Part shown: positions 2,201 through 27,170 of the stretch, piece after piece | How positions within the stretch are numbered: the first letter of the stretch is position 1 | Layout: every line of letters begins with the position of its first letter | NCBI GenBank assembly: GCA_019057375.1 | Contig: DXJF01000123.1 | Coordinates: 1-30,960, forward strand | DNA from: Candidatus Heimdallarchaeota archaeon | GTDB lineage: Archaea; Asgardarchaeota; Heimdallarchaeia; Heimdallarchaeales; Heimdallarchaeaceae | Reading direction: 5' to 3' | DNA: 30,960 nt | Notes under the pieces: model-generated | Told to the model about the DNA's origin: nothing | The model's input: only the letters and a program-made list of their open reading frames with translations | Databases searched by the model: none | Program-made: the position numbers and the translations under genes

Positions 2201-3552
2201 ATTCGTTTTCTTTCAATTTTTTTAATTTTCTTAACCCATCTATCAAATTTTTCTGGTTTTTCTGGATAATTTTGAGACAGTTTCTTTATTTTCTCTGCAA
2301 GAAGTAAACCTTTGGCAACTTTAATGAGTAATTTGGGTTTTCTTAAACCTTTGAAAACTTTTTTCACTATTGGTAGCTTAACTGCCGTTGAATACATTAT
2401 GGAGTCAACATCTTCTTGAGAGATAATACCTTTCTCAAATAGAAATGAAAAATCGCTGAATGGGACTGAATTAAGTAGCTTGTGAACAGCAATACCTAAT
2501 CCTCCATCATAACCATATTCCTCCCATATTTTGATATTATATTTCCAGAGAAAACTCTCACTGAGATCTTGATTTCTTATTGCTAACTCAACAATTTCTG
2601 AAGCATAGTATGCACTTAATAATGCTGGTCCATGCCCTTCACCACTTATTGGATTAACAAGAGTTGCCGCATCTCCACAAGTGATAAAACCGTCACAAAC
2701 CATTGAATATAAAGGTAAACGACCAGGTAGAGTGTCTCCTGATCCGTCTAAAACTTTAGAATCTGGAAAGATTTTTTTCCGAAGTATTTCTAAAATGGTT
2801 TTGGTATTAGAATCTTTGTTATTATCATTCAGTAACCACCCAACTCCAATATTCAACTGCTTTTCTCCTTTAGAAAAAATCCAAAAATATCCCGGAGGAG
2901 GCATCTCATCATGATATTCTATTCTCATTTGCTTTTGATAATCATGTGGTTTGGAGGTTTCGATAATTTCTCTATAAGAAACAATGGTTTCTTCTTTAAG
3001 AAGTTTTTTTGAAAACTTATTGCATACTGAATCTGGGATGGTTCTTCTAACAATACCTGTGATACCAGAACAATCAGCAACTATCTTTGCATAGATACTG
3101 ATAATTTTGCCACTGGACTGTCGGATTTTACATCCCACTACTTTGTTATTTTCAATTATTGTTTCAATCGCTTTATGATTTGGTTTGAAGGTTACACTTG
3201 CATAATCTGTAAGAGATTTTAGCAGTCTTTGACCATATTTTAACCTATCGATGGTCTGTGAAGTAAAGTCAATAGATAATTCGAAATCCAGAACAGGACG
3301 AAAATGTGCAGAAGCAAGATTCTCTGCAACTTCTTCACCTCTTGGTTGCATTATCCCAGAGAGCTCAAATAATCTTCTTGTTGAATTTGGACTTAAAGCA
3401 TCTCCACAAGGCTTGTATCCCACATCTCTCTTTGGTTTTTGATCTATCACTATTGTTGAAATGTTTCTTTTTCCAAGATTAATAGCAAAGCTTACTCCTG
3501 CGGGTCCTGCACCAACAATTAGTACATCTGTATCTATGTGTTGCTTCAGCAT
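2197..3552 (-). CDS. Geranylgeranyl reductase family FAD-dependent oxidoreductase (digeranylgeranylglycerophospholipid reductase-like)
   Basis: GAGPAG dinucleotide motif, PCGDA, YFWIF (YxWxFP-like) and GDAATLVNPISGEG. Confidence 0.85.
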   Translation of the reverse strand: MLKQHIDTDVLIVGAGPAGVSFAINLGKRNISTIVIDQKPKRDVGYKPCGDALSPNSTRRLFELSGIMQPRGEEVAENLASAHFRPVLDFELSIDFTSQTIDRLKYGQRLLKSLTDYASVTFKPNHKAIETIIENNKVVGCKIRQSSGKIISIYAKIVADCSGITGIVRRTIPDSVCNKFSKKLLKEETIVSYREIIETSKPHDYQKQMRIEYHDEMPPPGYFWIFSKGEKQLNIGVGWLLNDNNKDSNTKTILEILRKKIFPDSKVLDGSGDTLPGRLPLYSMVCDGFITCGDAATLVNPISGEGHGPALLSAYYASEIVELAIRNQDLSESFLWKYNIKIWEEYGYDGGLGIAVHKLLNSVPFSDFSFLFEKGIISQEDVDSIMYSTAVKLPIVKKVFKGLRKPKLLIKVAKGLLLAEKIKKLSQNYPEKPEKFDRWVKKIKKIERKRI

Positions 3553-3633
3553 TGAAATGTTATTGAAATCATGAGATTAAAAATTTTTCATATTGTTTAA
3601 ATTTTTACAGATAAAATATCTTAAATATTCAAA

Positions 3634-4113
3634 GTGAATCCTAACACACCAATGCAACCCAATTCTAAAATACATTTTTACCAAGAAATAATTAAAAAAG
3701 CTCACGATTCATTCCGTGAATTTCTTGTTCATTTACCAGAAGACATTCTTGAATGGCAAATACATGAATCTTTGAATTCTGTTAGGTGGATAATAGAACA
3801 TGTAATACATGATCAGCTGTGGATAGCTAACGTAATAATGAATAATTATGAAGAAGGTTATCATTTTAAGGCTAGCATTGATCAATATGCTCTTGATGAA
3901 CTTGTAGAGAAGTATGATGATGTTTTTATAGCGATTGAAGAGAAATTTGTAGATCTCAAAGAAGAACATCTGAATGAAGCAAGAGTGTATAAAGAATTTA
4001 GTCTCTCTGTTGAAGATTGGCTCTACGAATACATTCATCATTTAAATCATCATAGCGGTGAAATTGGTTTAATACTAACAGCATGGAAGAGAAAGAAGAG
4101 ATCTTTAAAATAG
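3634..4113 (+). CDS. DinB/YfiT-like superfamily metal-binding four-helix protein
   Basis: SVRWIIEHV and HHLNHHSGEI give the typical His triad. Size fits. GTG start at 3634, or ATG at 3652. Confidence 0.7.
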   Translation: MNPNTPMQPNSKIHFYQEIIKKAHDSFREFLVHLPEDILEWQIHESLNSVRWIIEHVIHDQLWIANVIMNNYEEGYHFKASIDQYALDELVEKYDDVFIAIEEKFVDLKEEHLNEARVYKEFSLSVEDWLYEYIHHLNHHSGEIGLILTAWKRKKRSLK

Positions 4114-4121
4114 AGCAATTA

Positions 4122-5003
4122 TTATGACTCCAAAAACTCTTCAGGGAGAGCTGGTTCAATATGTATAATCAAATCCTTGAAATCATTATCTTGTTCTAAT
4201 TCAGCTTTAACTTTTTCAGAAATCTCGTGAGCTTCAATAATTGATAGCTTTGGATTTACTAAAATATGAAAGTCTCCTGTATAAGAACCCAAAACGGACC
4301 TTAATCTAATGATATGTACTTCCTCTACATGTTCAAAAGATAGCACTTTTTCCTTTAGTTTATCAATTATTTCTTGGGGTGGTCCTTTATCTAGTAACTC
4401 TGGAAGAGAACTCTTAGTTATTTCATAACCAGTGTACAAAATTAAACATACTATTACCAATGCAAAAGCAGGATCTAACCACCAAACATTATATTTGACA
4501 CCAAGATATGCAAACCCTACAAAAACAGATGAAATTGCATCTGTTCTATAGTTTTTGGCATTTGCTATGTACACAGCAGAGTTTAGCTTCTTTCCAATTG
4601 TCATCACACCAATGTAAAGAAGTATTTTACCTACGAAAGAAATAACTGCAGCGACAAGAACATATATTTCTAAATCATAAGGTGTCCCCTCTGTAAGTTT
4701 GGTTATTGCATTTTCTGCAATAAAATAAGAAGAAAGAAACATAGTAGAAGCAATAACTAAGCTTGATATCATCTGAAATTTATGGTGCCCAAAAGGGTGA
4801 TCCTGATCTGCAGGCTTTCTGCTTCGTCTTTCTCCAACTCCTGCTATTGATGCAGAAACAAGATCTAGAACTGAATCAAAACCATCAGCTATCAAACTAA
4901 TTGATCCAAAAATAGATCCAATTACCAATTTCAAAGTCATCAAAATTATATTCCCTCCGATTGAGAGAATATTTGCAATAGCTGCTAGTCTTACTTTTGC
5001 CAT
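4122..5003 (-). CDS. Cation diffusion facilitator (FieF/MntE-like) metal efflux transporter
   Basis: SISLIADGFDSVLD (TM2), DQDHPFGH loop, NYRTD (TM5) and C-terminal EAHEIS/IHIEP dimerization domain. ATG at 5003 preferred because the longer ORF overlaps pmbA. Confidence 0.92.
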   Translation of the reverse strand: MAKVRLAAIANILSIGGNIILMTLKLVIGSIFGSISLIADGFDSVLDLVSASIAGVGERRSRKPADQDHPFGHHKFQMISSLVIASTMFLSSYFIAENAITKLTEGTPYDLEIYVLVAAVISFVGKILLYIGVMTIGKKLNSAVYIANAKNYRTDAISSVFVGFAYLGVKYNVWWLDPAFALVIVCLILYTGYEITKSSLPELLDKGPPQEIIDKLKEKVLSFEHVEEVHIIRLRSVLGSYTGDFHILVNPKLSIIEAHEISEKVKAELEQDNDFKDLIIHIEPALPEEFLES

Positions 5004-16608: not shown

Positions 16609-17991
16609 ATGACAGATTATTTGGATACTCCAATATCGTGGGGTTCAGAAATCATTAATGGATTTGTGCCAAGTCAATATAAAGATCAAACTAAGTTTTT
16701 ACATCCACCAGAATTTTCCAAAACCCCAATGTTTGAAGGAACAGTTAAGGAAGCTTTACTGAGAAAATTATCCGATCCATTGGGATATAACCTCTCCTTT
16801 GATAAGCTTGTTGAACAGAAATATCAAAAAGGTAAACCTATTGTTTTTGTAGTTGATGATTACACAAGACCGAATAATCATACTAAAATAATTTTACCCA
16901 TAATGATTGAAAGAGTATTGTCTCTAAATGTTTTGAAAGAAGATATCAGAATTCTAATAGCTACAGGCACGCACAGACTTCCAAAGGAGTCGGAATATTC
17001 AAAGATACTTGGAGAGCAAATCTCTGAAGAATATAGATCACAAATAGTTTCACATGATTGTGATATTGAAGGAGTCTATGTTGGTGAAAGTGAAGCTGGA
17101 ACTCCCATGGAATTCGATAAATTAGCTTTTGAAGCATCGATATTAGTTCCAATAACTGATAGTGAATTACACTATTTCGCCGGTGTAGCGGGAACTATTA
17201 AAGAAATATGCCCTGGAATTGCCAGTAGGGGTACTGTAAGGCAAAACCATCCTAAAATGTTTGACAGAAAATTAGGTTTCCATCCTGGTTGTAAACTAGG
17301 AGGAACAAAAGAAAACCCAGTAATTACTGATATTAAAAACATGGTCAACATTCTAAAAGCGAAAGTAACTATTTTTGGTATTGATACAATAGTTACTGAA
17401 GGCAAAGTAGTCTATATCGGTGTAGGTGATTTAGTGGAATTACATGATGAAGCTAAAAAACATATTGTTGATATGAGAACTATAAAACTACCCAAGGCTG
17501 CAGGAATTGTTGTTAGCGGAATGCAAAGCTGGGGTATAAATCTCTATCAAGCTGGTAAAGGAATACACGCTGCTTGGAATGCGGTTAAGCAAGATGGCAA
17601 GGGAGAAATTCTAGCGGTAGCACCTCTTCCAGATGGTATAGGCAACGCCAATTACGAAAAAGTAATGAAAGAAACAGGTGATATGCCTCTCAAAGAAGCT
17701 CTCGAGTATATTTTAGATAATTACTGTACAACTGAGACATTCAAAATAGGAAACCAAAAACCCGTAGATACCATGAGAATAGTAAAGATGATTGGAGAAG
17801 GAAATCTGAAAATGATCTCAGATTGGGATGCTGAACAATTAAGAAAGTACTATCGAGTTGATCCAATAAAAAACCCTGAAGAATCTCCTGTAGATACGCT
17901 AAGAAGAGCAATTTCAAAATATATGTCTAAAAATCCAGAAGAACTAATTTACATAATGGATGATCCTGGTTTATATGTTATCATCGAGTAG
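16609..17991 (+). CDS. larA: LarA-family nickel-pincer-dependent alpha-hydroxy acid racemase/epimerase
   Basis: DDYTRP, ATGTHR, HYFAGVAGTIKEICPG, QNH and NLYQAGKG match the LarA catalytic His/Lys positions. Substrate not determinable from sequence. Confidence 0.85.
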   Translation: MTDYLDTPISWGSEIINGFVPSQYKDQTKFLHPPEFSKTPMFEGTVKEALLRKLSDPLGYNLSFDKLVEQKYQKGKPIVFVVDDYTRPNNHTKIILPIMIERVLSLNVLKEDIRILIATGTHRLPKESEYSKILGEQISEEYRSQIVSHDCDIEGVYVGESEAGTPMEFDKLAFEASILVPITDSELHYFAGVAGTIKEICPGIASRGTVRQNHPKMFDRKLGFHPGCKLGGTKENPVITDIKNMVNILKAKVTIFGIDTIVTEGKVVYIGVGDLVELHDEAKKHIVDMRTIKLPKAAGIVVSGMQSWGINLYQAGKGIHAAWNAVKQDGKGEILAVAPLPDGIGNANYEKVMKETGDMPLKEALEYILDNYCTTETFKIGNQKPVDTMRIVKMIGEGNLKMISDWDAEQLRKYYRVDPIKNPEESPVDTLRRAISKYMSKNPEELIYIMDDPGLYVIIE

Positions 17992-18746: not shown

Positions 18747-19934
18747 CTATGTTCTTATTAAGGAATCAACTGTTTCCAGAAAAATTATTATCTCATCCTC
18801 AGTATTGTAAAGATGAGTCGATACTCTTACTATGTCATTGAATTTAAGTTCATACATATACAGATGAGAACATAAAGCCCCACTTCTTACTTGTATATTT
18901 TTCATATCATCTAGAACCATAGCCAAATCGTGTGCTTCTATTTTTTCACTGCCAAATGACAAAATTGGTCCATATTCAGCTCCCTCAATTTTGCTTATCT
19001 TAAGAGAAGGAATGCTTTCTAATCCAGTTCTTAGCTTGGAATGTAATTTTTTCTCATACTCCTGAATCTTTGATAACCCAAAATTCGATAATAGTTCTAG
19101 ACTATTAGTCATTGCAGTTATATTGGCAACATTAACTATACCTGTTTCAAACTTCGAACCTGAAGAATTGAGGAGATAGGAATATTCTTCAAGTGCAATT
19201 ATTGATCCTCCTCCGACAATTAGAGGCTCCATTGCATTATAGGTTTCCTTATTAGTAATCTGGAATGCTGTACCTGTAGGGCCTAAAGCACCTATACACC
19301 CTGAAGATACAACTATATCTGGTGATTCATTATCAAACTTAATCTCTTCATGTCCCACTGAATAACTAATATCTAGAATGAAAGTGGCATCCACTTCTTT
19401 ACAGATTTTAGCTATTTTGTTCCATTCTCTCTTAACACCATTAGTAGCTGTTAAAGAAGAAAGAAGCACAATGTCTTTTGGAGAATGTATTTTTTCACTA
19501 ATTTTCTCAATAAGGGTTGTTTCATCTTCGATATTTAGATATTCGATATCTGTACCAAAAGAATTGTTCACTCTTATTGCTGGAGCTAAAATAGAATGCT
19601 CCTCTAGAATACTAGTAACAACTCTTTTTTCACCTATATTCGGTATTGAATAAAAGGCACTTGTTAGAACCGTTTCCCTTGATGGAAAAAATGAAATTTG
19701 GGATGATTCTACATTGAATATTCTTGAAAGTGATTGCCTGTTTTTTTCCAGAAGTCGATTGCTAGAAGAAATTTCTCTGTGCACCCCTCTAACAGGCGCT
19801 CCTCCTCCATTTCTGTAATATTCCTGTATTTTTCTCATAGAAGAAATAGGAATTTTCCCAATTGTAGCTGAATCTAGATAAATTTGGTCAGGCTTTAGAT
19901 TAAATTCAATTCCAAATCTTGTAGTGGTAGTCAT
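18747..19934 (-). CDS. SufS/class-V aminotransferase-like protein, paralog 1 (PLP lysine absent)
   Basis: YLDSAT, EEHS, LDISY, SSGCIGALGPTG in place of SGHK, FETG, RSGALCSH and RVSTHLYN. Confidence 0.85.
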   Translation of the reverse strand: MTTTTRFGIEFNLKPDQIYLDSATIGKIPISSMRKIQEYYRNGGGAPVRGVHREISSSNRLLEKNRQSLSRIFNVESSQISFFPSRETVLTSAFYSIPNIGEKRVVTSILEEHSILAPAIRVNNSFGTDIEYLNIEDETTLIEKISEKIHSPKDIVLLSSLTATNGVKREWNKIAKICKEVDATFILDISYSVGHEEIKFDNESPDIVVSSGCIGALGPTGTAFQITNKETYNAMEPLIVGGGSIIALEEYSYLLNSSGSKFETGIVNVANITAMTNSLELLSNFGLSKIQEYEKKLHSKLRTGLESIPSLKISKIEGAEYGPILSFGSEKIEAHDLAMVLDDMKNIQVRSGALCSHLYMYELKFNDIVRVSTHLYNTEDEIIIFLETVDSLIRT

Positions 19935-20111: not shown

Positions 20112-21302
20112 TCATATTTCTACCATTATTGATTCTAATGTTTCTATAAAAGTAACAATGTCCTTTTTTGTGTTATATAGATGAGTAGAAACTTGAACTA
20201 TTGATTCTCGCTTTAATTCATCCATAAAAAGATGAGAACACAGTGCTCCACTTCTAACATAAATGTTTGCCAGATCTTCTAGAATAATCGCTATATCATG
20301 AGAATCAATATCTTCGCTAAAGAAGGAAATAACAGGACCATATGATAAACCATCTTTCTCAACAATATCTATCTTGTTAATATTTTTGAGACCGTCATAA
20401 AGGATTTTTCTTAATTCTTGTTCATGTTTTCTGATTTTTTCAAAACCAATATTTGATAATAGTTGCAGACTATTTGCTAAACCAGAAATAGAGGCTATAT
20501 TCAATGATCCTGGCTCATATTTATTTGGAGCTGATGATAATCTATAGTCAGATTTATTTACGGAAACAACAGCTCCTCCACCTATTAAAACTGGATTGAA
20601 TTCTTTCTCAATTCCACCTGAAATAATTTGAAATGCTGATCCATGAGGGCCAAGAGCTCCTATATCACCAGATGAAATGATGATGTGGGGAGAAATCTTA
20701 TCAAAATTATAGGATGCATGGCCTACACCATTGGACATGTCTAAGATAAACAATAATTCATTGTCAATTGCTAATTGAGATAAACTTTTCCAATCTCTTT
20801 GAACCCCCATTCCAAGAGTTAGTGATGACAGAACGATTGCTTTTGTTTTTGAATTAATCTTTGCTTGAATAGAAGAAACTAAATCGATTTCTTCTTCAAT
20901 TCCTGTAAAGTTGAGATGTGTTCCAAAGAATTTATTTACATTCAATAGTGGTGTTATTACTGAATGATCATCAAGAGAACTAGTTATAATTTCACTTTCC
21001 CTATCGAAACTTTGAGAAAAAAGTGCATTAAGCAACGCAGTTTCTCTTGATGGTAGGAAAGATATACGTGACTGGTCAACAGAGAAGATATCTCCGATAA
21101 TTGAACGAGATTTTTCTAGTGAACGACTAGCATTGATTGCAATTTTATGTGTGCCCCTGCTAATCCCTCCTCCATGTTTGGAATAAAAATCATCCATAAC
21201 TGATACTGAGGACTGAGGCAGTCTTCCTACGGTTGCAGAATCTAGATAAATTTCATCTTCATTGATGATGAAATCTATACCAAAATGATTTTGGACTGTC
21301 AT
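20112..21302 (-). CDS. SufS/class-V aminotransferase-like protein, paralog 2 (PLP lysine absent)
   Basis: YLDSAT, DDHS, LDMSN, SSGDIGALGPHG, YEPG, RSGALCSH and QVSTHLYN. ATG 21302 preferred over TTG 21305. Confidence 0.85.
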   Translation of the reverse strand: MTVQNHFGIDFIINEDEIYLDSATVGRLPQSSVSVMDDFYSKHGGGISRGTHKIAINASRSLEKSRSIIGDIFSVDQSRISFLPSRETALLNALFSQSFDRESEIITSSLDDHSVITPLLNVNKFFGTHLNFTGIEEEIDLVSSIQAKINSKTKAIVLSSLTLGMGVQRDWKSLSQLAIDNELLFILDMSNGVGHASYNFDKISPHIIISSGDIGALGPHGSAFQIISGGIEKEFNPVLIGGGAVVSVNKSDYRLSSAPNKYEPGSLNIASISGLANSLQLLSNIGFEKIRKHEQELRKILYDGLKNINKIDIVEKDGLSYGPVISFFSEDIDSHDIAIILEDLANIYVRSGALCSHLFMDELKRESIVQVSTHLYNTKKDIVTFIETLESIMVEI

Positions 21303-21328
21303 CAATGAATTGATTGAAATTAAGTTGA

Positions 21329-21387: not shown

Positions 21388-21843
21388 ATGGTAAATAATC
21401 TAGATAAATTGGAAATAAATTTGGAAGAGGATATTAACAATTATATAAACAAATTTAACGATTTACTGGACAATTTATCAAGTTTATCTAGTAGTAAAAT
21501 TAATGACATACTTTGGAAACTGAGGGCTGATTTAGAACTTCTGATAATAGAGCTTAAATTTGTTTTAGAGAAGGAAAATAAAACTGAGAGATGGCAATCT
21601 TTGTTCAAAGAGGAACTTAAGGGGACAAGTTCAAAACAAAAAGCTATGAAGATGTTGGAAAGTTATAGGAAGGGCAATCAAGAAATACAAACAATTTTTA
21701 AGAAAAAACCTGAACAAAGTTTCCGATATTTTTGGAAATTGAAAGAGACTATTTCCTCAATTCTTTCGGCATTCGCTGTAGAGAAAATTGAGTGGTCTAA
21801 TGGTGAGATGAAGAAGGTTTCTGAAGATGTTTTTGAAATTTGA
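21388..21843 (+). CDS. Hypothetical all-helical protein (151 aa)
   Basis: ATG start with TTTTTTATAT 24-33 nt upstream. Amphipathic helices. No recognised family. Confidence 0.7.
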   Translation: MVNNLDKLEINLEEDINNYINKFNDLLDNLSSLSSSKINDILWKLRADLELLIIELKFVLEKENKTERWQSLFKEELKGTSSKQKAMKMLESYRKGNQEIQTIFKKKPEQSFRYFWKLKETISSILSAFAVEKIEWSNGEMKKVSEDVFEI

Positions 21844-21860
21844 TTACATCTAACAGTAAA

Positions 21861-21867
21861 TATAAAA
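21861..21867 (+). promoter_or_regulatory. TATA box of the ARPC4-like gene
   Basis: TATAAAA 26-32 nt upstream of ATG 21893. Confidence 0.5.
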
Positions 21868-21892
21868 CAGTAAAACACTTTTGATTACTTGT

Positions 21893-22381
21893 ATGAGTTC
21901 TCATTCACCTGAGTTTTTAGAAGATAAGGAAAAAATCAGGCAAGCTATGAAACTTGAAAAGTATATCTGCCCCCATAGAGAAATTAACTATCCTTGTGTT
22001 ATCTGTAAAGATTGTAGAGATATGGATTTGAAGCAATTTCCACTTAAAAATGGGTTTATCGAGAAAACTAGAAATTCAAGTCTGATTTCGATGATTTTTG
22101 AACTTAGAGATCCTTTCGATGATATGTTACTTAAACGACTAAGTGTAGCACTTTATGAAGCTACAGGAATTGTTCAAAAGGAACCAGAACCAGGATTTTC
22201 TATCACATTTTATATATCTGAAGCATTACTTGACAAAATAACTGAAATTGAGAAATTCATATCTTTTATAGCTGATTTCCAACATAAATTCCTCTCTGAA
22301 ACAATAGCAGCAAGAAGTGCTCTAAATAAATGGGAAAGATCAACAACAAAGCGGTTATTGTGGGATATGAGTATCCAATAA
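21893..22381 (+). CDS. Arp2/3 complex subunit 4 (ARPC4/p20-Arc)-like protein
   Basis: End-to-end colinear resemblance to eukaryotic ARPC4 as recalled: LEKY/LENF, NYP/NKP, IEKTRNS/IEGSINS, IVQKEPEPGFSITFYIS/ILRRKPVEGYDISFLIT, ALNKWER/SVNARAR. Similar length (162 vs about 168 aa). Confidence 0.75.
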   Translation: MSSHSPEFLEDKEKIRQAMKLEKYICPHREINYPCVICKDCRDMDLKQFPLKNGFIEKTRNSSLISMIFELRDPFDDMLLKRLSVALYEATGIVQKEPEPGFSITFYISEALLDKITEIEKFISFIADFQHKFLSETIAARSALNKWERSTTKRLLWDMSIQ

Positions 22382-22389
22382 AAAGAAGA

Positions 22390-23535
22390 TTAAGAAACAC
22401 TCTTCCAGTATATACCTATTTTATCGGCGTGATTTCGAACTTCATACATTTCTGTAGTTGAAATTCTTCTCTTAATCTCAGGAAATCTATCCGTTTGAAG
22501 AACAATGTAATCGGGATGATATTGACCCATAATGTTCACAAGTGGTGTATTAAGATTTTCTTTGATCCAATCCAAAAGGGGAATAGAACAACACTTTGTG
22601 TGGTTTGGCATAACTAGGTGACGAATTATATACTCGCCGGATCCTCTGTCTTCAATCATTCTCATATTTCTTTGAAGAGCTTCCCAATATTTTGGTGCTT
22701 TGGAGTACTTGGTTGCACATTCTTTGTTGGAATATTTCATATCTGGAAGCCAAATATCAAAAAGATCTGCAATCAGTTTCATGCTCATATCGGTAAGATA
22801 CATGTTACTATTCCACAACATTGGGACATCAACTTGTGCATGTTTGAAAGATTCAAGAATCACATGTAAGTTTGGTGTAGGTTCTCCTCCAACAAAATTG
22901 ATATTCCTCGCATTCTGTTTAACCATAGTGAAATAATGCTGTGCAAGCTGAATAGCTGATGTTCCTCTCCCCTTAATTCTCTCAAATCCAAATTCGTGAC
23001 TTATATCCCAGTTTTGACAAAACTGACAATCCATAGTACAACCCAAAAAGAATATTGTTCCACTAGGAACAATAGGGCTTTCTTCCCCCATATGAATGAA
23101 AGCTGAGCTAACGTATGCTTTATCATCAACTCCACATTTCCCAACCTCTCCTTCATCACGATTAGCTCTACATCTATTCTCACAGAATTCACATGAAGAA
23201 AGAACATCTTTTAAAATAGTTAGTTTCAGCTCCAGATAATTATTGCTCTCGATATCCTCATCTTTGTGTAGTTCTTCAATTTCTTTCTCGATTTCTTCAA
23301 GAGGAAGATGCTGTTTCTCTACTATCCACTTCTTGAATTTTGGATAGTAATGTTCATGAATATTCATTAGTTCATCTTTATCCTTGTAACCATTAAAAGG
23401 AACATAGAATAATCGAGCCAGTTTATATCGGGGAATACGTTTTCCCTGAAATATTTCTCTGTAATGTACTAGACGATTTTCTAATTCAACTTGTTGCCAA
23501 ACAGTCATTGTATCTCTTTTCAAAAGAGTCCACAT
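22390..23535 (-). CDS. PflX-family radical SAM protein (PFL-activating-enzyme related)
   Basis: CEFCENRC...GKCGV, GEESPIVPSGTIFFLGCTMDCQFCQNWDIS, GGEPTPNL, WNSNMY, LPDMKY and IIRHLVMPNH. Confidence 0.88.
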   Translation of the reverse strand: MWTLLKRDTMTVWQQVELENRLVHYREIFQGKRIPRYKLARLFYVPFNGYKDKDELMNIHEHYYPKFKKWIVEKQHLPLEEIEKEIEELHKDEDIESNNYLELKLTILKDVLSSCEFCENRCRANRDEGEVGKCGVDDKAYVSSAFIHMGEESPIVPSGTIFFLGCTMDCQFCQNWDISHEFGFERIKGRGTSAIQLAQHYFTMVKQNARNINFVGGEPTPNLHVILESFKHAQVDVPMLWNSNMYLTDMSMKLIADLFDIWLPDMKYSNKECATKYSKAPKYWEALQRNMRMIEDRGSGEYIIRHLVMPNHTKCCSIPLLDWIKENLNTPLVNIMGQYHPDYIVLQTDRFPEIKRRISTTEMYEVRNHADKIGIYWKSVS

Positions 23536-23691: not shown

Positions 23692-24732
23692 ATGAAATTA
23701 ATGTCACAGTCTCCACTGCACGAAGCTGAATATTACGATGTACTTGATGAAGAAAATCAAGTAATCCTATGTCGCTTATGCCCCATAGAATGTACTTTGC
23801 TAGTTGGAGAGAAAGGTAAATGTTCTTCGCGTATAAATCTTGAAGGGAAAATGCATTCTCTAACTTATGGATATACAGATATGAAGATAGATATGATTGA
23901 AAAACAACATGTTTTTCATTTTCATCCAAATTCAAGAGCACAAACATTTTCTACTTACAATTGTAATCTTGATTGTGATTATTGTGTAATGCCTGATAAG
24001 ATTGGGGTTGATCCAGCTCAAACTAGTGCAAAAAAACTAGCTCCTGATCAAGCTGCAATGTTTGGGGTGGCATCAGGTTCTAAAGTTATGGCTTTTGGTG
24101 AAGCTGAACCACTAATATCTTTTGAATGGGTTCGTGATACAGCGATTCTTGCTCAACAGAGAAATCTGAAAGTGTTATTGAGAACCAATGCATATTTCAA
24201 TGAAGAACCTGTTAAGGAGATTCTTGAGTATGTTGATGCGGTTATTATTGACATAAAGTCAGTTACTGATACCGGGTATCAACAAAAGTGTCATGCAGGT
24301 ACTTTCAAAGAAATTAAGAAGATTATCAAGTTGATTTATGAAGAGGAAAAGCTTCTCGAACTAAATTTCGTTATCCATGGAGCACTTGAGAATACTGAAG
24401 AACAAACTAGAGAACTAGCCGAATGGATAAAAGAAGAACTTTCAGTATCTGTTCCGCTACACTTAGATAGATTGCTCCCTGCTCATAGACTTAAAGAAGT
24501 ACAACCTACAACTACAGAATTATTAGAGAAATGTTATCAAATAGCTAAGGACGTAGGCTTAGAGTTTGTTTATTTAAACAATGTACCTGATCATGAAGCA
24601 TCACATACTTATTGTCCAAAATGTGGAGAATTGCTTATTCATAGAGGAGCTTCAGCAACAGAAGTAAGGAGAATCTCTTTACAAGGAAATTGTAATAAAT
24701 GTGAAACTAAGCTCAATATAGTTTTCAAATAA
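23692..24732 (+). CDS. Second AmrS-like radical SAM protein (divergent paralog)
   Basis: CRLCPIEC N-terminus, IEKQHVFHFHP, CNLDCDYC, AEPLISFEW and TYCPKCG. Colinear with 7896-8921. Confidence 0.82.
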   Translation: MKLMSQSPLHEAEYYDVLDEENQVILCRLCPIECTLLVGEKGKCSSRINLEGKMHSLTYGYTDMKIDMIEKQHVFHFHPNSRAQTFSTYNCNLDCDYCVMPDKIGVDPAQTSAKKLAPDQAAMFGVASGSKVMAFGEAEPLISFEWVRDTAILAQQRNLKVLLRTNAYFNEEPVKEILEYVDAVIIDIKSVTDTGYQQKCHAGTFKEIKKIIKLIYEEEKLLELNFVIHGALENTEEQTRELAEWIKEELSVSVPLHLDRLLPAHRLKEVQPTTTELLEKCYQIAKDVGLEFVYLNNVPDHEASHTYCPKCGELLIHRGASATEVRRISLQGNCNKCETKLNIVFK

Positions 24733-25072: not shown

Positions 25073-27016
25073 TCATTTCTTCTTATCAGTGTTAAGTGCT
25101 GAATGTTCTAAAGCTAAGTCTTCATACTTCTTAGCAATATAGCTAAATTCCTTTGGAAGGGCATTTCGAAGTACTTCGTGAAAGTTTGTTACTGGGATGA
25201 TTTCCACCATTCCTTTATACCTTTCTTCTAACTTAACATCATCTATATTTTGAATTGGTACAATGACTCGCTTTATTCCAGCTTCAGTTGCAGCTTCAAT
25301 TTTTGCAGTAACTCCACCAACTGGAATAACTATTCCTCTAACTGTTAAACTACCAGTCATAGCAGTATCCTGCCTAATTGGTGCTTTCTCTAGAGCTGAT
25401 ATGATAGAAACAGCTATTGAAATAGAAGCTGAATCTCCTTCGACACCAGAATAAGAACCAACAAATTGAATGTGGTAATCAAAGTCTGAAATATCTTTAC
25501 CGACATACTTCTTTACAATTGCTGAAACATTCTGTACAGCTTCTCTAGCAATAATTCGTAATTGACCTGTCGCAATGATTTTTCCTTCTCTTCTACTGAA
25601 AGCTGGAACAACTTCTGCTTCTATAGGCATAACAATACCTGATCTTTGATTGATGACAGCAAGGCCATTTACTCTTCCAACTTTGGCATCATCAGTTTCA
25701 AAGATTTTGTAGAGTTTTCTTGAATCGGCATAAGAATCACTCATTTGATTTTCCAAAGTTCTTGCAATAACCTTGGCATTTCTAAGTGTCTCAGCAGATA
25801 CTAAATCCTCTCCATTTTCTTTGGCTAAGTCGCCTGCAGCTCTAATTAATCCTCCTAATTCTCGTAATCGTAAAGTAAGATGGTCTTTCTTGTCAGCTCT
25901 TCGTTGAGCTTCATAGATTATTTCTTCAACTGCCTCATGTTTGAAGTGAGGAATTCTTCGATCTTTTACAATCTCCTGCGCACAAAAACGAGCTAGCTTC
26001 CGTCTGTTTTCAGGAGTATCTTTCATAGTATCAGTCATATAAACCTCATAGCCAGATCCTTGAATCCTTGATCTCAACGCAGGATGCATGTTACGAGTAG
26101 TTTCGATATTACCAGCAGCAATTAAAACAAAATTACACGGAACAGGGTCGCTTCTAACCATTGCCCCACTACTAAGTTCTGATTGACCAGTAATTTGCAG
26201 CTTACCCTCTTGCATGGCTGTAAGTAGTTTTTGCTGAGTTCTCATTTCAAGAGTCCCTATCTCATCACTGTAGAGAACACCAAGATTAGATTTGTGAATT
26301 AAACCACTTTCTACACGTTCGTGAGGTGGAGTTCCTAATCCTCCAGATTGGAAAGGATCATGTCTAACATCACCAAGGAGAGCTCCAGCATGTGATCCAG
26401 TAGCATCATTAAAGGGTGCTTTATCCTTTTTACTATTATCTACCAATAATTTTGGTACAAGCATTTCGCTTTTAGATCTGGATTGATTAAGCATAAAGAA
26501 AATGAAAAATCCTACAAACATAGCCATCAAAAGAGTCTGGGGTTGACTAGCAGGATTACCAGCAGTAGCTATCAAAGCATAACCAATTATTGCAAGTAAT
26601 ATTGCAATAGAAATAATGAATCTCTTATTTCCGCTCTTTCTAGCAAGCTCAGCATCCATTTCAACTTTTCTCGCACCATGACCTGCTGGAAGAGTAGCAA
26701 CACGTGGTTGGTTTGGATATTTAGGGTTAGCTATACATAAAACATCAACAAGCTCCTCTTTAGGAAGAAGCTCTGCCATTGCTTGACCAAGCATGCTTTT
26801 ACCTGTACCTGGTTCTCCAATCAGAAGAACATGTCTTCTTTGTAAGGCAGCTTTTTTGATAATTTCAGTTGCATTTTCTTGACCAATTACTTGATCAATT
26901 AAACGAGGAGGTACAGAAATTTCACTAGTATCACTAAATTCAATGTCCAATAGTGCATCTTTTTTAGCTTTAGGCTTGGCCTTTTTCTTGGCTTTAGGTT
27001 GAGTTCCAGACCCCAT
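25073..27016 (-). CDS. lonB: Archaeal membrane-anchored ATP-dependent Lon protease (LonB)
   Basis: Walker A GEPGTGKS, two TM segments inside the AAA+ domain, catalytic Ser in EGDSAS and Lys in GGVTAKIEAA. ATG 27016 preferred over GTG 27025. Confidence 0.95.
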   Translation of the reverse strand: MGSGTQPKAKKKAKPKAKKDALLDIEFSDTSEISVPPRLIDQVIGQENATEIIKKAALQRRHVLLIGEPGTGKSMLGQAMAELLPKEELVDVLCIANPKYPNQPRVATLPAGHGARKVEMDAELARKSGNKRFIISIAILLAIIGYALIATAGNPASQPQTLLMAMFVGFFIFFMLNQSRSKSEMLVPKLLVDNSKKDKAPFNDATGSHAGALLGDVRHDPFQSGGLGTPPHERVESGLIHKSNLGVLYSDEIGTLEMRTQQKLLTAMQEGKLQITGQSELSSGAMVRSDPVPCNFVLIAAGNIETTRNMHPALRSRIQGSGYEVYMTDTMKDTPENRRKLARFCAQEIVKDRRIPHFKHEAVEEIIYEAQRRADKKDHLTLRLRELGGLIRAAGDLAKENGEDLVSAETLRNAKVIARTLENQMSDSYADSRKLYKIFETDDAKVGRVNGLAVINQRSGIVMPIEAEVVPAFSRREGKIIATGQLRIIAREAVQNVSAIVKKYVGKDISDFDYHIQFVGSYSGVEGDSASISIAVSIISALEKAPIRQDTAMTGSLTVRGIVIPVGGVTAKIEAATEAGIKRVIVPIQNIDDVKLEERYKGMVEIIPVTNFHEVLRNALPKEFSYIAKKYEDLALEHSALNTDKKK

Positions 27017-27170
27017 AAATATCACAAATTATAGATAAGAGTATTTTCAATTGATAAGGTTTACTGACGTTAATAAAGATATGTTTTTGGTCAAACTTTC
27101 TGTGCGACACTCACAAATTCTACATTTAATTAAAATGAAAAGGCTTTAATTTCCAACTGATTATAATTGC

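Follow-up and report, generated by a model that had tools for sequence, protein, structure and literature searches.

An ARPC4-family gene in a Heimdallarchaeaceae archaeon and its possible role on actin filaments

[quoted passage not shown] What, then, might an ARPC4-like protein do in an archaeon? We addressed this question for a gene in a 30,960-nucleotide stretch of DNA from Candidatus Heimdallarchaeota archaeon (family Heimdallarchaeaceae; assembly GCA_019057375.1, contig DXJF01000123.1, positions 1 to 30,960 of the forward strand), referred to here as the window. The gene lies at positions 21893 to 22381 on the forward strand and encodes a protein of 162 amino acids (P0001). We regard it as practically certain that this open reading frame (ORF) is a genuine member of the ARPC4 (p20-Arc, PF05856) family, and we put at slightly better than even (about 0.55) the probability that its product acts as a stand-alone ARPC4-family scaffold on actin filaments.

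A preliminary description of this DNA, made from its letters, had likened the gene product to eukaryotic ARPC4, and tests with a hidden Markov model (HMM), with profiles, and with the predicted fold all bore this out. When the Pfam ARPC4 model was run, as that description had recommended, residues 55 to 156 aligned with positions 62 to 165 of the 167 in PF05856 (E = 1.3e-6), with a score of 28.5 bits against a curated gathering cutoff of 22.2 bits, a cutoff that was never exceeded in 14 control prokaryote genomes. The matched region (positions 22055 to 22360, forward strand) takes in the beta-sheet, helix 74-91, strand 104-109, and most of the C-terminal helix. A profile built from 19 homologues of the protein (A1) picked out three ARPC4 entries (Schizosaccharomyces pombe and bovine/human-type chains) from among all PDB sequences, with E values of 1e-5 to 4e-5 and the next match at 0.3; the profile was required for this, a search of the PDB with the single sequence having given only a chance match (E = 1.8). 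Searched with no word index against 1.8 billion representative proteins, the same profile gave 31 matches, five of which are canonical eukaryotic ARPC4 proteins (183 to 257 bits with the Pfam model; profile E values of 1.5e-6 to 9e-4). The Pfam P34-Arc (ARPC2) model found no match on the protein. The profile-PDB alignment also placed in register every motif that had been called collinear with ARPC4, namely, the IE..NS strand, the D..(D/E)..L helix, the P..G(F/Y).I(S/T)F strand, and the C-terminal N...R. The N-terminal ~60 residues fall outside the ARPC4 profile match, the Pfam and PDB profile alignments both starting at residue 52 to 55; structurally, this segment can be aligned to ARPC4 from residue 7 to 9 onward.

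The recommended AlphaFold monomer was also computed. The best AlphaFold2 (AF2) model (predicted local distance difference test score, or pLDDT, of 87; predicted template modeling score, or pTM, of 0.83) has a single alpha/beta globular domain and a C-terminal helix, as ARPC4 does. Foldseek returned ARPC4 (chain F) as the best match to it (E = 2e-8; template modeling score of 0.65; 156 to 157 of 162 columns) and ARPC2 (chain D) as the second (E = 0.03). Eukaryotic ARPC2 (p34-Arc, PF04045) differs in having two globular domains in ~300 amino acids. The elements of the model, as assigned by DSSP, are a helix (residues 11 to 19), a loop and short helix bearing four cysteines (C26, C35, C38, and C41), three strands (47 to 67), a helix (74 to 91), a strand (104 to 109), and a C-terminal helical segment (119 to 158; positions 22247 to 22366, forward strand) that is the equivalent of the long ARPC4 helix, which pairs with ARPC2 and contacts the mother filament, and that is interrupted at residue 128 and at residues 141 to 143. 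Within this segment, F125, I126, F129, F133, N145, W147, R149, and R154 are conserved. The model superposes on ARPC4 up to residue 146, beyond which the last helix (147 to 162) folds back in the monomer. In the Arp2/3 complex, the last helix of ARPC4 is straight and runs antiparallel against a helix of ARPC2 (PMC9894260), and the folded-back helix may reflect a monomer model burying a surface that normally faces a partner.

In pairwise comparison, the protein is just 16 to 19% identical to eukaryotic ARPC4 (chain F of 1K8K, 1TYQ, 2P9P, 3DWL, and 6W17), and this figure, together with the failure of the single sequence to find ARPC4 in the PDB, would be expected if the resemblance had arisen by chance or if the ORF were not a real gene. 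We give that explanation negligible weight; it was ruled out by a Pfam score above the gathering cutoff, by profile and fold matches that are specific to ARPC4, by 50 homologues (55 to 98% identity) that are strongly conserved and all match PF05856, and by the presence of the gene in 95 genomes. The ORF is uninterrupted from its ATG at 21893 to a TAA stop codon at 22379 to 22381, which is included in the coordinates of the coding sequence, and whereas an in-frame TTG is found upstream at 21881, the 50 homologues begin at the equivalent of the ATG. Close homologues are 161 to 166 amino acids long. The nearest named ones are hypothetical proteins from metagenome-assembled genomes of Candidatus Heimdallarchaeota or Heimdallarchaeaceae, at 87 to 94% identity, with AB_125 at 87%. 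A search of the whole genome with PF05856 matched the same coordinates and showed the gene to be present in one copy (contig C74). The G+C content across the window is 29 to 39%, and the composition is unbroken at the gene.

We also looked at the rest of the genome (3.47 Mb in 159 contigs; 89% complete) for the proteins with which an ARPC4 subunit might be expected to work. It encodes one canonical actin (447 bits; contig C132), one actin-related protein (ARP; 201 bits; contig C14), and two two-domain gelsolins (contigs C158 and C151). All of these genes are on contigs other than that of the window, which contains no actin gene, so the placement of the ARPC4-like gene "outside any actin locus" in the preliminary description was correct. 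No credible match to ARPC2 or ARPC3 was found in this 89%-complete genome. ARPC5 was not found either, in a search that is weak because the control genomes also gave no match, and the Pfam profilin model found nothing in the genome or in the controls, a result that says little. A weak P34-Arc match on contig C12 (13 to 14 bits) was rejected as noise: it falls on a membrane-anchored, beta-rich ORF to which hhalign assigned a probability of 0.1% in a comparison with the ARPC4-like profile. Thus, in contrast to the canonical Arp2/3 complex, to which Arp2, Arp3, and ARPC1 also belong, this genome has one actin and one ARP and no detectable ARPC2, ARPC3, or ARPC5, and the ARPC4-like protein therefore stands outside the canonical seven-subunit complex. 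Furthermore, with no ARPC2 present, the C-terminal helix, if it pairs at all, requires either self-pairing or a noncanonical partner.

Self-pairing would give a homodimeric ancestral clamp, in which two copies of the protein come together by antiparallel C-terminal helices, mimic ARPC2/ARPC4, and clamp the side of an Asgard actin filament. ARPC2 and ARPC4 have homologous globular domains, and the complex has at its core the antiparallel C-terminal helices of these two subunits (PMC9894260). ARPC2 ranks second among the structural matches to the archaeal model, the genome has a single ARPC4-like gene and no ARPC2, and the last helix of the monomer model leaves the path seen in ARPC4 as if it lacked a partner. 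However, no tandem or duplicated ARPC4-like architecture was seen among longer proteins (a weak search), and a second copy was clear in only 2 of the 95 genomes with a match. We consider the homodimer possible and somewhat unlikely.

Whether the protein could touch actin can be asked of individual residues. Of the surface buried on the mother filament, 60% is contributed by ARPC2 and ARPC4, which as an isolated pair have micromolar affinity for filaments (PMC9894260). In S. pombe, N154 and R158 of ARPC4 bond with actin D80, E83, and T126, N154 being part of a hydrogen bond network with E83 and T126, and R55 of eukaryotic ARPC4 pairs with actin E99 (PMC10918085). The HMM alignment equates N154 and R158 with N145 and R149 of the archaeal protein (the N...R motif; codons at positions 22325 to 22339, forward strand), which are invariant in 19 of 19 members of the family. 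The actin encoded in the same genome reads WDAME and FDTF at the corresponding sites and has thus retained D80, E83, and T126. N145 and R149, taken with the retained actin residues, are the best evidence obtained here for binding to the side of a filament; this evidence is correlative, and the correspondence could point to such binding. We judge the chance that the protein binds actin filaments to be a little short of even. As an observation in its own right, the actin gene (positions 1474 to 2619 of locus L002, on contig C132) encodes Asn at the position of eukaryotic E99, opposite Q48 of the ARPC4-like protein.

The mechanism that we propose is that a small stand-alone scaffold would use its conserved C-terminal helix to bind the organism's own actin filaments along their side (or to bind its ARP), with N145 and R149 being used against actin D80, E83, and T126 in the way that eukaryotic ARPC4 uses N154 and R158. 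A second copy of the protein, or else a lineage-specific partner, would stand in for ARPC2 and cover the hydrophobic face of the same helix, and the product of a helical orphan gene directly upstream is a candidate partner or regulator. The four invariant cysteines would hold the N-terminal segment, which is free of cysteine in eukaryotes, probably through structural zinc.

How widely the family occurs, and in what form, bears on this proposal. With a profile of diverse members (A2) used over 400 genomes of the phylum (85 genera), the ARPC4-like family was found in 95 genomes and 26 genera. It is present in 26 of 30 genomes of the window's family and in 3 of 3, 10 of 12, and 21 of 22 genomes of three other families of the class; several large groups gave no match to the profile (0/12, 0/19, 0/14, and 0/135). 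Other Asgard lineages carry the domain within longer proteins of 360 to 410 amino acids (P0061, 383 amino acids; L011, positions 944 to 2170, 408 amino acids; L012, positions 477 to 1598; P0069, 361 amino acids), of which there are two forms. One combines an ATC-hydrolase/V4R-like N-terminal domain, the ARPC4-like domain, and a Zn-ribbon-like CPxC...H.H tail, and the other has the ARPC4-like domain followed by a low-complexity linker of ~200 amino acids and a helical C terminus. These fused proteins have the same domain as the protein of the window, which is the bare domain. When the ARPC4-like profile was run against a set of 5.8 billion proteins, the only longer form recovered was the vertebrate ARPC4-TTLL3 read-through (P0114), which has no bearing on the archaeal proteins, and no fusion of the ARPC4-like and upstream helical families was found in this search. 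In a tree of 35 domains, the eukaryotic sequences sit on a very long branch and group weakly with the window's order (support of 66/58). Because of the weak support and the long branch, we make no claim about the closest archaeal relatives of eukaryotic ARPC4.

Several observations weigh against a stand-alone scaffold on actin filaments. In a wider set of sequences that includes eukaryotes, N145 is kept in 16 of 24 and R149 in 17 of 24, or about two-thirds, and the conservation of this pair could reflect helix-helix packing rather than contact with actin. The salt bridge between R55 and E99 is lost, the residues being Q48 in the ARPC4-like protein and N99 in actin; a polar pair may now take the place of the bridge, or there may no longer be a contact. 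Just one of the five AF2 models is confident, the other four having pLDDT scores of 73, 72, 59, and 55. Across ~30 loci of other Asgard genomes, no actin or ARP gene occurs within ~2.5 kb of the ARPC4-like gene, and placement outside actin loci is the rule for the Asgard family. Finally, the fusions to unrelated modules fit a general adaptor as well as they fit an actin factor. In a rival reading, the protein is not an actin factor, and the Asgard ARPC4 fold would serve as a general metal-dependent adaptor or sensor that was recruited to actin branching on the eukaryotic stem only. Against this reading, N145 and R149 are among the few positions that the archaeal protein has in common with eukaryotic ARPC4, and their actin counterparts are kept; moreover, the absence of the family from several large actin-bearing Asgard groups fits an accessory cytoskeletal factor too. 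We regard a role unconnected with actin as quite unlikely and favor the scaffold on actin filaments.

The N-terminal segment, which lies outside the Pfam match, carries a feature that sets the archaeal protein apart from eukaryotic ARPC4, as does Q48 in place of R55. Its four cysteines form a motif, C26-x8-C35-x2-C38-x2-C41 (positions 21968 to 22015, forward strand), that is a putative metal site. All four are invariant in 19 of 19 Heimdallarchaeaceae sequences. Of the 33 ARPC4-like ORFs in the loci that were fetched (one sequence recurring in a few of these loci), 30 have the motif, as do most of the full-length archaeal representatives. Most of the fused Asgard proteins keep it as well, L011 being one that has lost it. 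In contrast, it is absent from all five eukaryotic ARPC4 representatives, which have Ser or other residues there. Judged by this pattern of conservation, the site probably binds a metal. In the wider family, the third and fourth cysteines are separated by anything from 2 to 5 residues, and because of this variation a structural zinc site fits better than a strict ferredoxin-type motif, making zinc the most likely ligand. The arrangement C-P...CxxCxxC recalls the ligands of 4Fe-4S clusters, and an iron-sulfur cluster may be considered as a secondary alternative to zinc.

Directly upstream of the ARPC4-like gene is its conserved neighbor, the helical orphan gene (positions 21388 to 21843, forward strand; 151 amino acids; P0082), whose product has no relative in Pfam, the PDB, or the Atlas. 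In an AF2 model of this protein (pLDDT of 86), a helical bundle and a beta-hairpin are accompanied by a disordered tail with a conserved terminal VFEI, and the fold matches of the model are limited to generic helix bundles and are uninformative. The gene was found in 25 of 30 other Heimdallarchaeaceae genomes (in one of them, the first 59 residues alone match), and in these 25 and the present genome the ARPC4-like gene follows it directly on the same strand, 37 to 165 bp downstream, even though the helical protein diverges to ~33% identity compared with 55 to 60% for the ARPC4-like protein. The association extends to a second family of the same order, in which seven loci have a homologue of 245 to 298 amino acids adjoining the ARPC4-like gene, the arrangement being divergent, upstream, or downstream. 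An hhalign comparison of the helical orphan with this longer protein gave a probability of 81% (E = 1.2e-5; 99 columns), and the two have the motifs LW..RA.LEL and Y..L...(K/R)E..T in common. Because the adjacency outlasts rearrangement, a functional linkage is suggested.

This raises the possibility of a two-gene module, in which the ARPC4-like protein works with the helical orphan product, the latter either replacing ARPC2 or acting as a regulator. Arguing for such a module are the same-strand adjacency wherever the helical gene was found in the Heimdallarchaeaceae, despite differences in the other flanks, and the adjacent homologue in seven loci of the second family in three arrangements. 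However, the two genes also occur apart. In one family of the class, 11 of 12 genomes carry the helical gene and none of the 12 carries the ARPC4-like gene; in another, the ARPC4-like gene is present in 21 of 22 genomes, with no detectable helical gene; and two further families have the genes on separate contigs. The helical family must have a role of its own, because it is kept in a family without the ARPC4-like gene. The homologues in that family are 140 to 143 amino acids long and match with E values of 1e-15 to 1e-21 (loci L036 to L039, from genomes G081, G090, G087, and G084). In one genome in which the locus is split, the ARPC4-like gene remains with the radical S-adenosylmethionine (SAM) and LonB side and the helical gene with the aminotransferase side.

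The spacer between the two genes (49 bp, AT rich; positions 21844 to 21892, forward strand) also bears on the question. It contains a TATA-like run, TAAATATAAAA, at positions 21857 to 21867, ~31 nucleotides before the ATG, that may be the ARPC4-like gene's own promoter. The possible promoter leaves cotranscription with the upstream gene in doubt, and the lack of an informative fold match for the helical protein is a further point against the module. The equivalent spacers in loci L005 and L007 are AT rich too, poorly alignable, and too divergent to decide between an operon and separate promoters. A prediction of the complex between the ARPC4-like (A1) and helical (A4) proteins gave ipSAE scores of 0.00 and 0.00, a result that counts neither for nor against binding. 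Overall, we hold the two-gene module to be rather unlikely. A bolder version, to be regarded as very doubtful, would make the ARPC4-like protein and the helical orphan a previously undescribed two-component, metal-dependent, actin-filament-binding module of the order that contains the Heimdallarchaeaceae, a pre-eukaryotic stand-in for the ARPC2/ARPC4 core with a Cys4 structural or redox switch that eukaryotes later lost.

Other genes lie on either side of the pair. On the 5' side, a LarA-like gene (positions 16609 to 17991, forward strand) has a strong match to the N-terminal domain of lactate racemase and a match below the cutoff to the C-terminal domain. Closer to the pair are tandem class V aminotransferase (cysteine desulfurase-like) genes with strong Aminotran_5 matches (positions 18747 to 19934 and 20112 to 21305, both on the reverse strand), the second of which encodes SSGDIG in place of SGHK, the expected motif of the pyridoxal phosphate-binding lysine. 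One such aminotransferase gene adjoins the helical/ARPC4-like pair in L005 and L007 and accompanies the helical gene in L040, from another family. On the 3' side are two radical-SAM genes (positions 22390 to 23535, reverse strand, and 23692 to 24732, forward strand). In L035, which comes from another family, the first is likewise next to the ARPC4-like gene, on its upstream side, and the product of the second ends in a small Zn-finger-like segment with a weak match to HVO_2753_ZBP. An archaeal LonB protease gene (positions 25073 to 27025, reverse strand) lies 2.7 kb from the ARPC4-like gene and is directly beside it in two distant families (L035, positions 2813 to 4738; L030, positions 302 to 2350). 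The proximity of LonB is probably an old synteny without obvious functional meaning.

The class to which the protein belongs is an established one. An "ARP2/3 complex subunit 4-like" protein has been listed among the eukaryotic signature proteins of Asgard archaea since Zaremba-Niedzwiedzka et al. 2017, as cited in PMC7444086 and PMC7522288, and this literature agrees with the remark in the preliminary description that ARPC4-like sequences had already been reported from Asgard genomes. An Asgard ARP2/3 subunit 4-like protein is also among the catalogue-matched clusters of a 2026 structural-clustering preprint (bioRxiv 10.64898/2026.10.28.762692). The gene studied here is one more member of this catalogued family, from which it differs in nothing essential, and it does not define a new class. 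In the literature on the Asgard ARPC4-like family that we searched, no functional test, Cys4 motif, or linked helical gene is described. The additions made here that we consider useful are the N/R contact pair, for which the actin has matching residues; a Cys4 site that is specific to archaea; and a linkage with the helical orphan that spans two families.

If the protein does bind Asgard actin filaments, alone or as a dimer, then the mother-filament-binding core predates the Arp2/3 complex. If, on the other hand, it does not bind Asgard actin, the ARPC4 fold was recruited to actin later. The locus offers three handles on this choice, namely, a protein of 162 amino acids with a probable metal site, the candidate contact residues N145 and R149, and an adjacent gene for a candidate partner.
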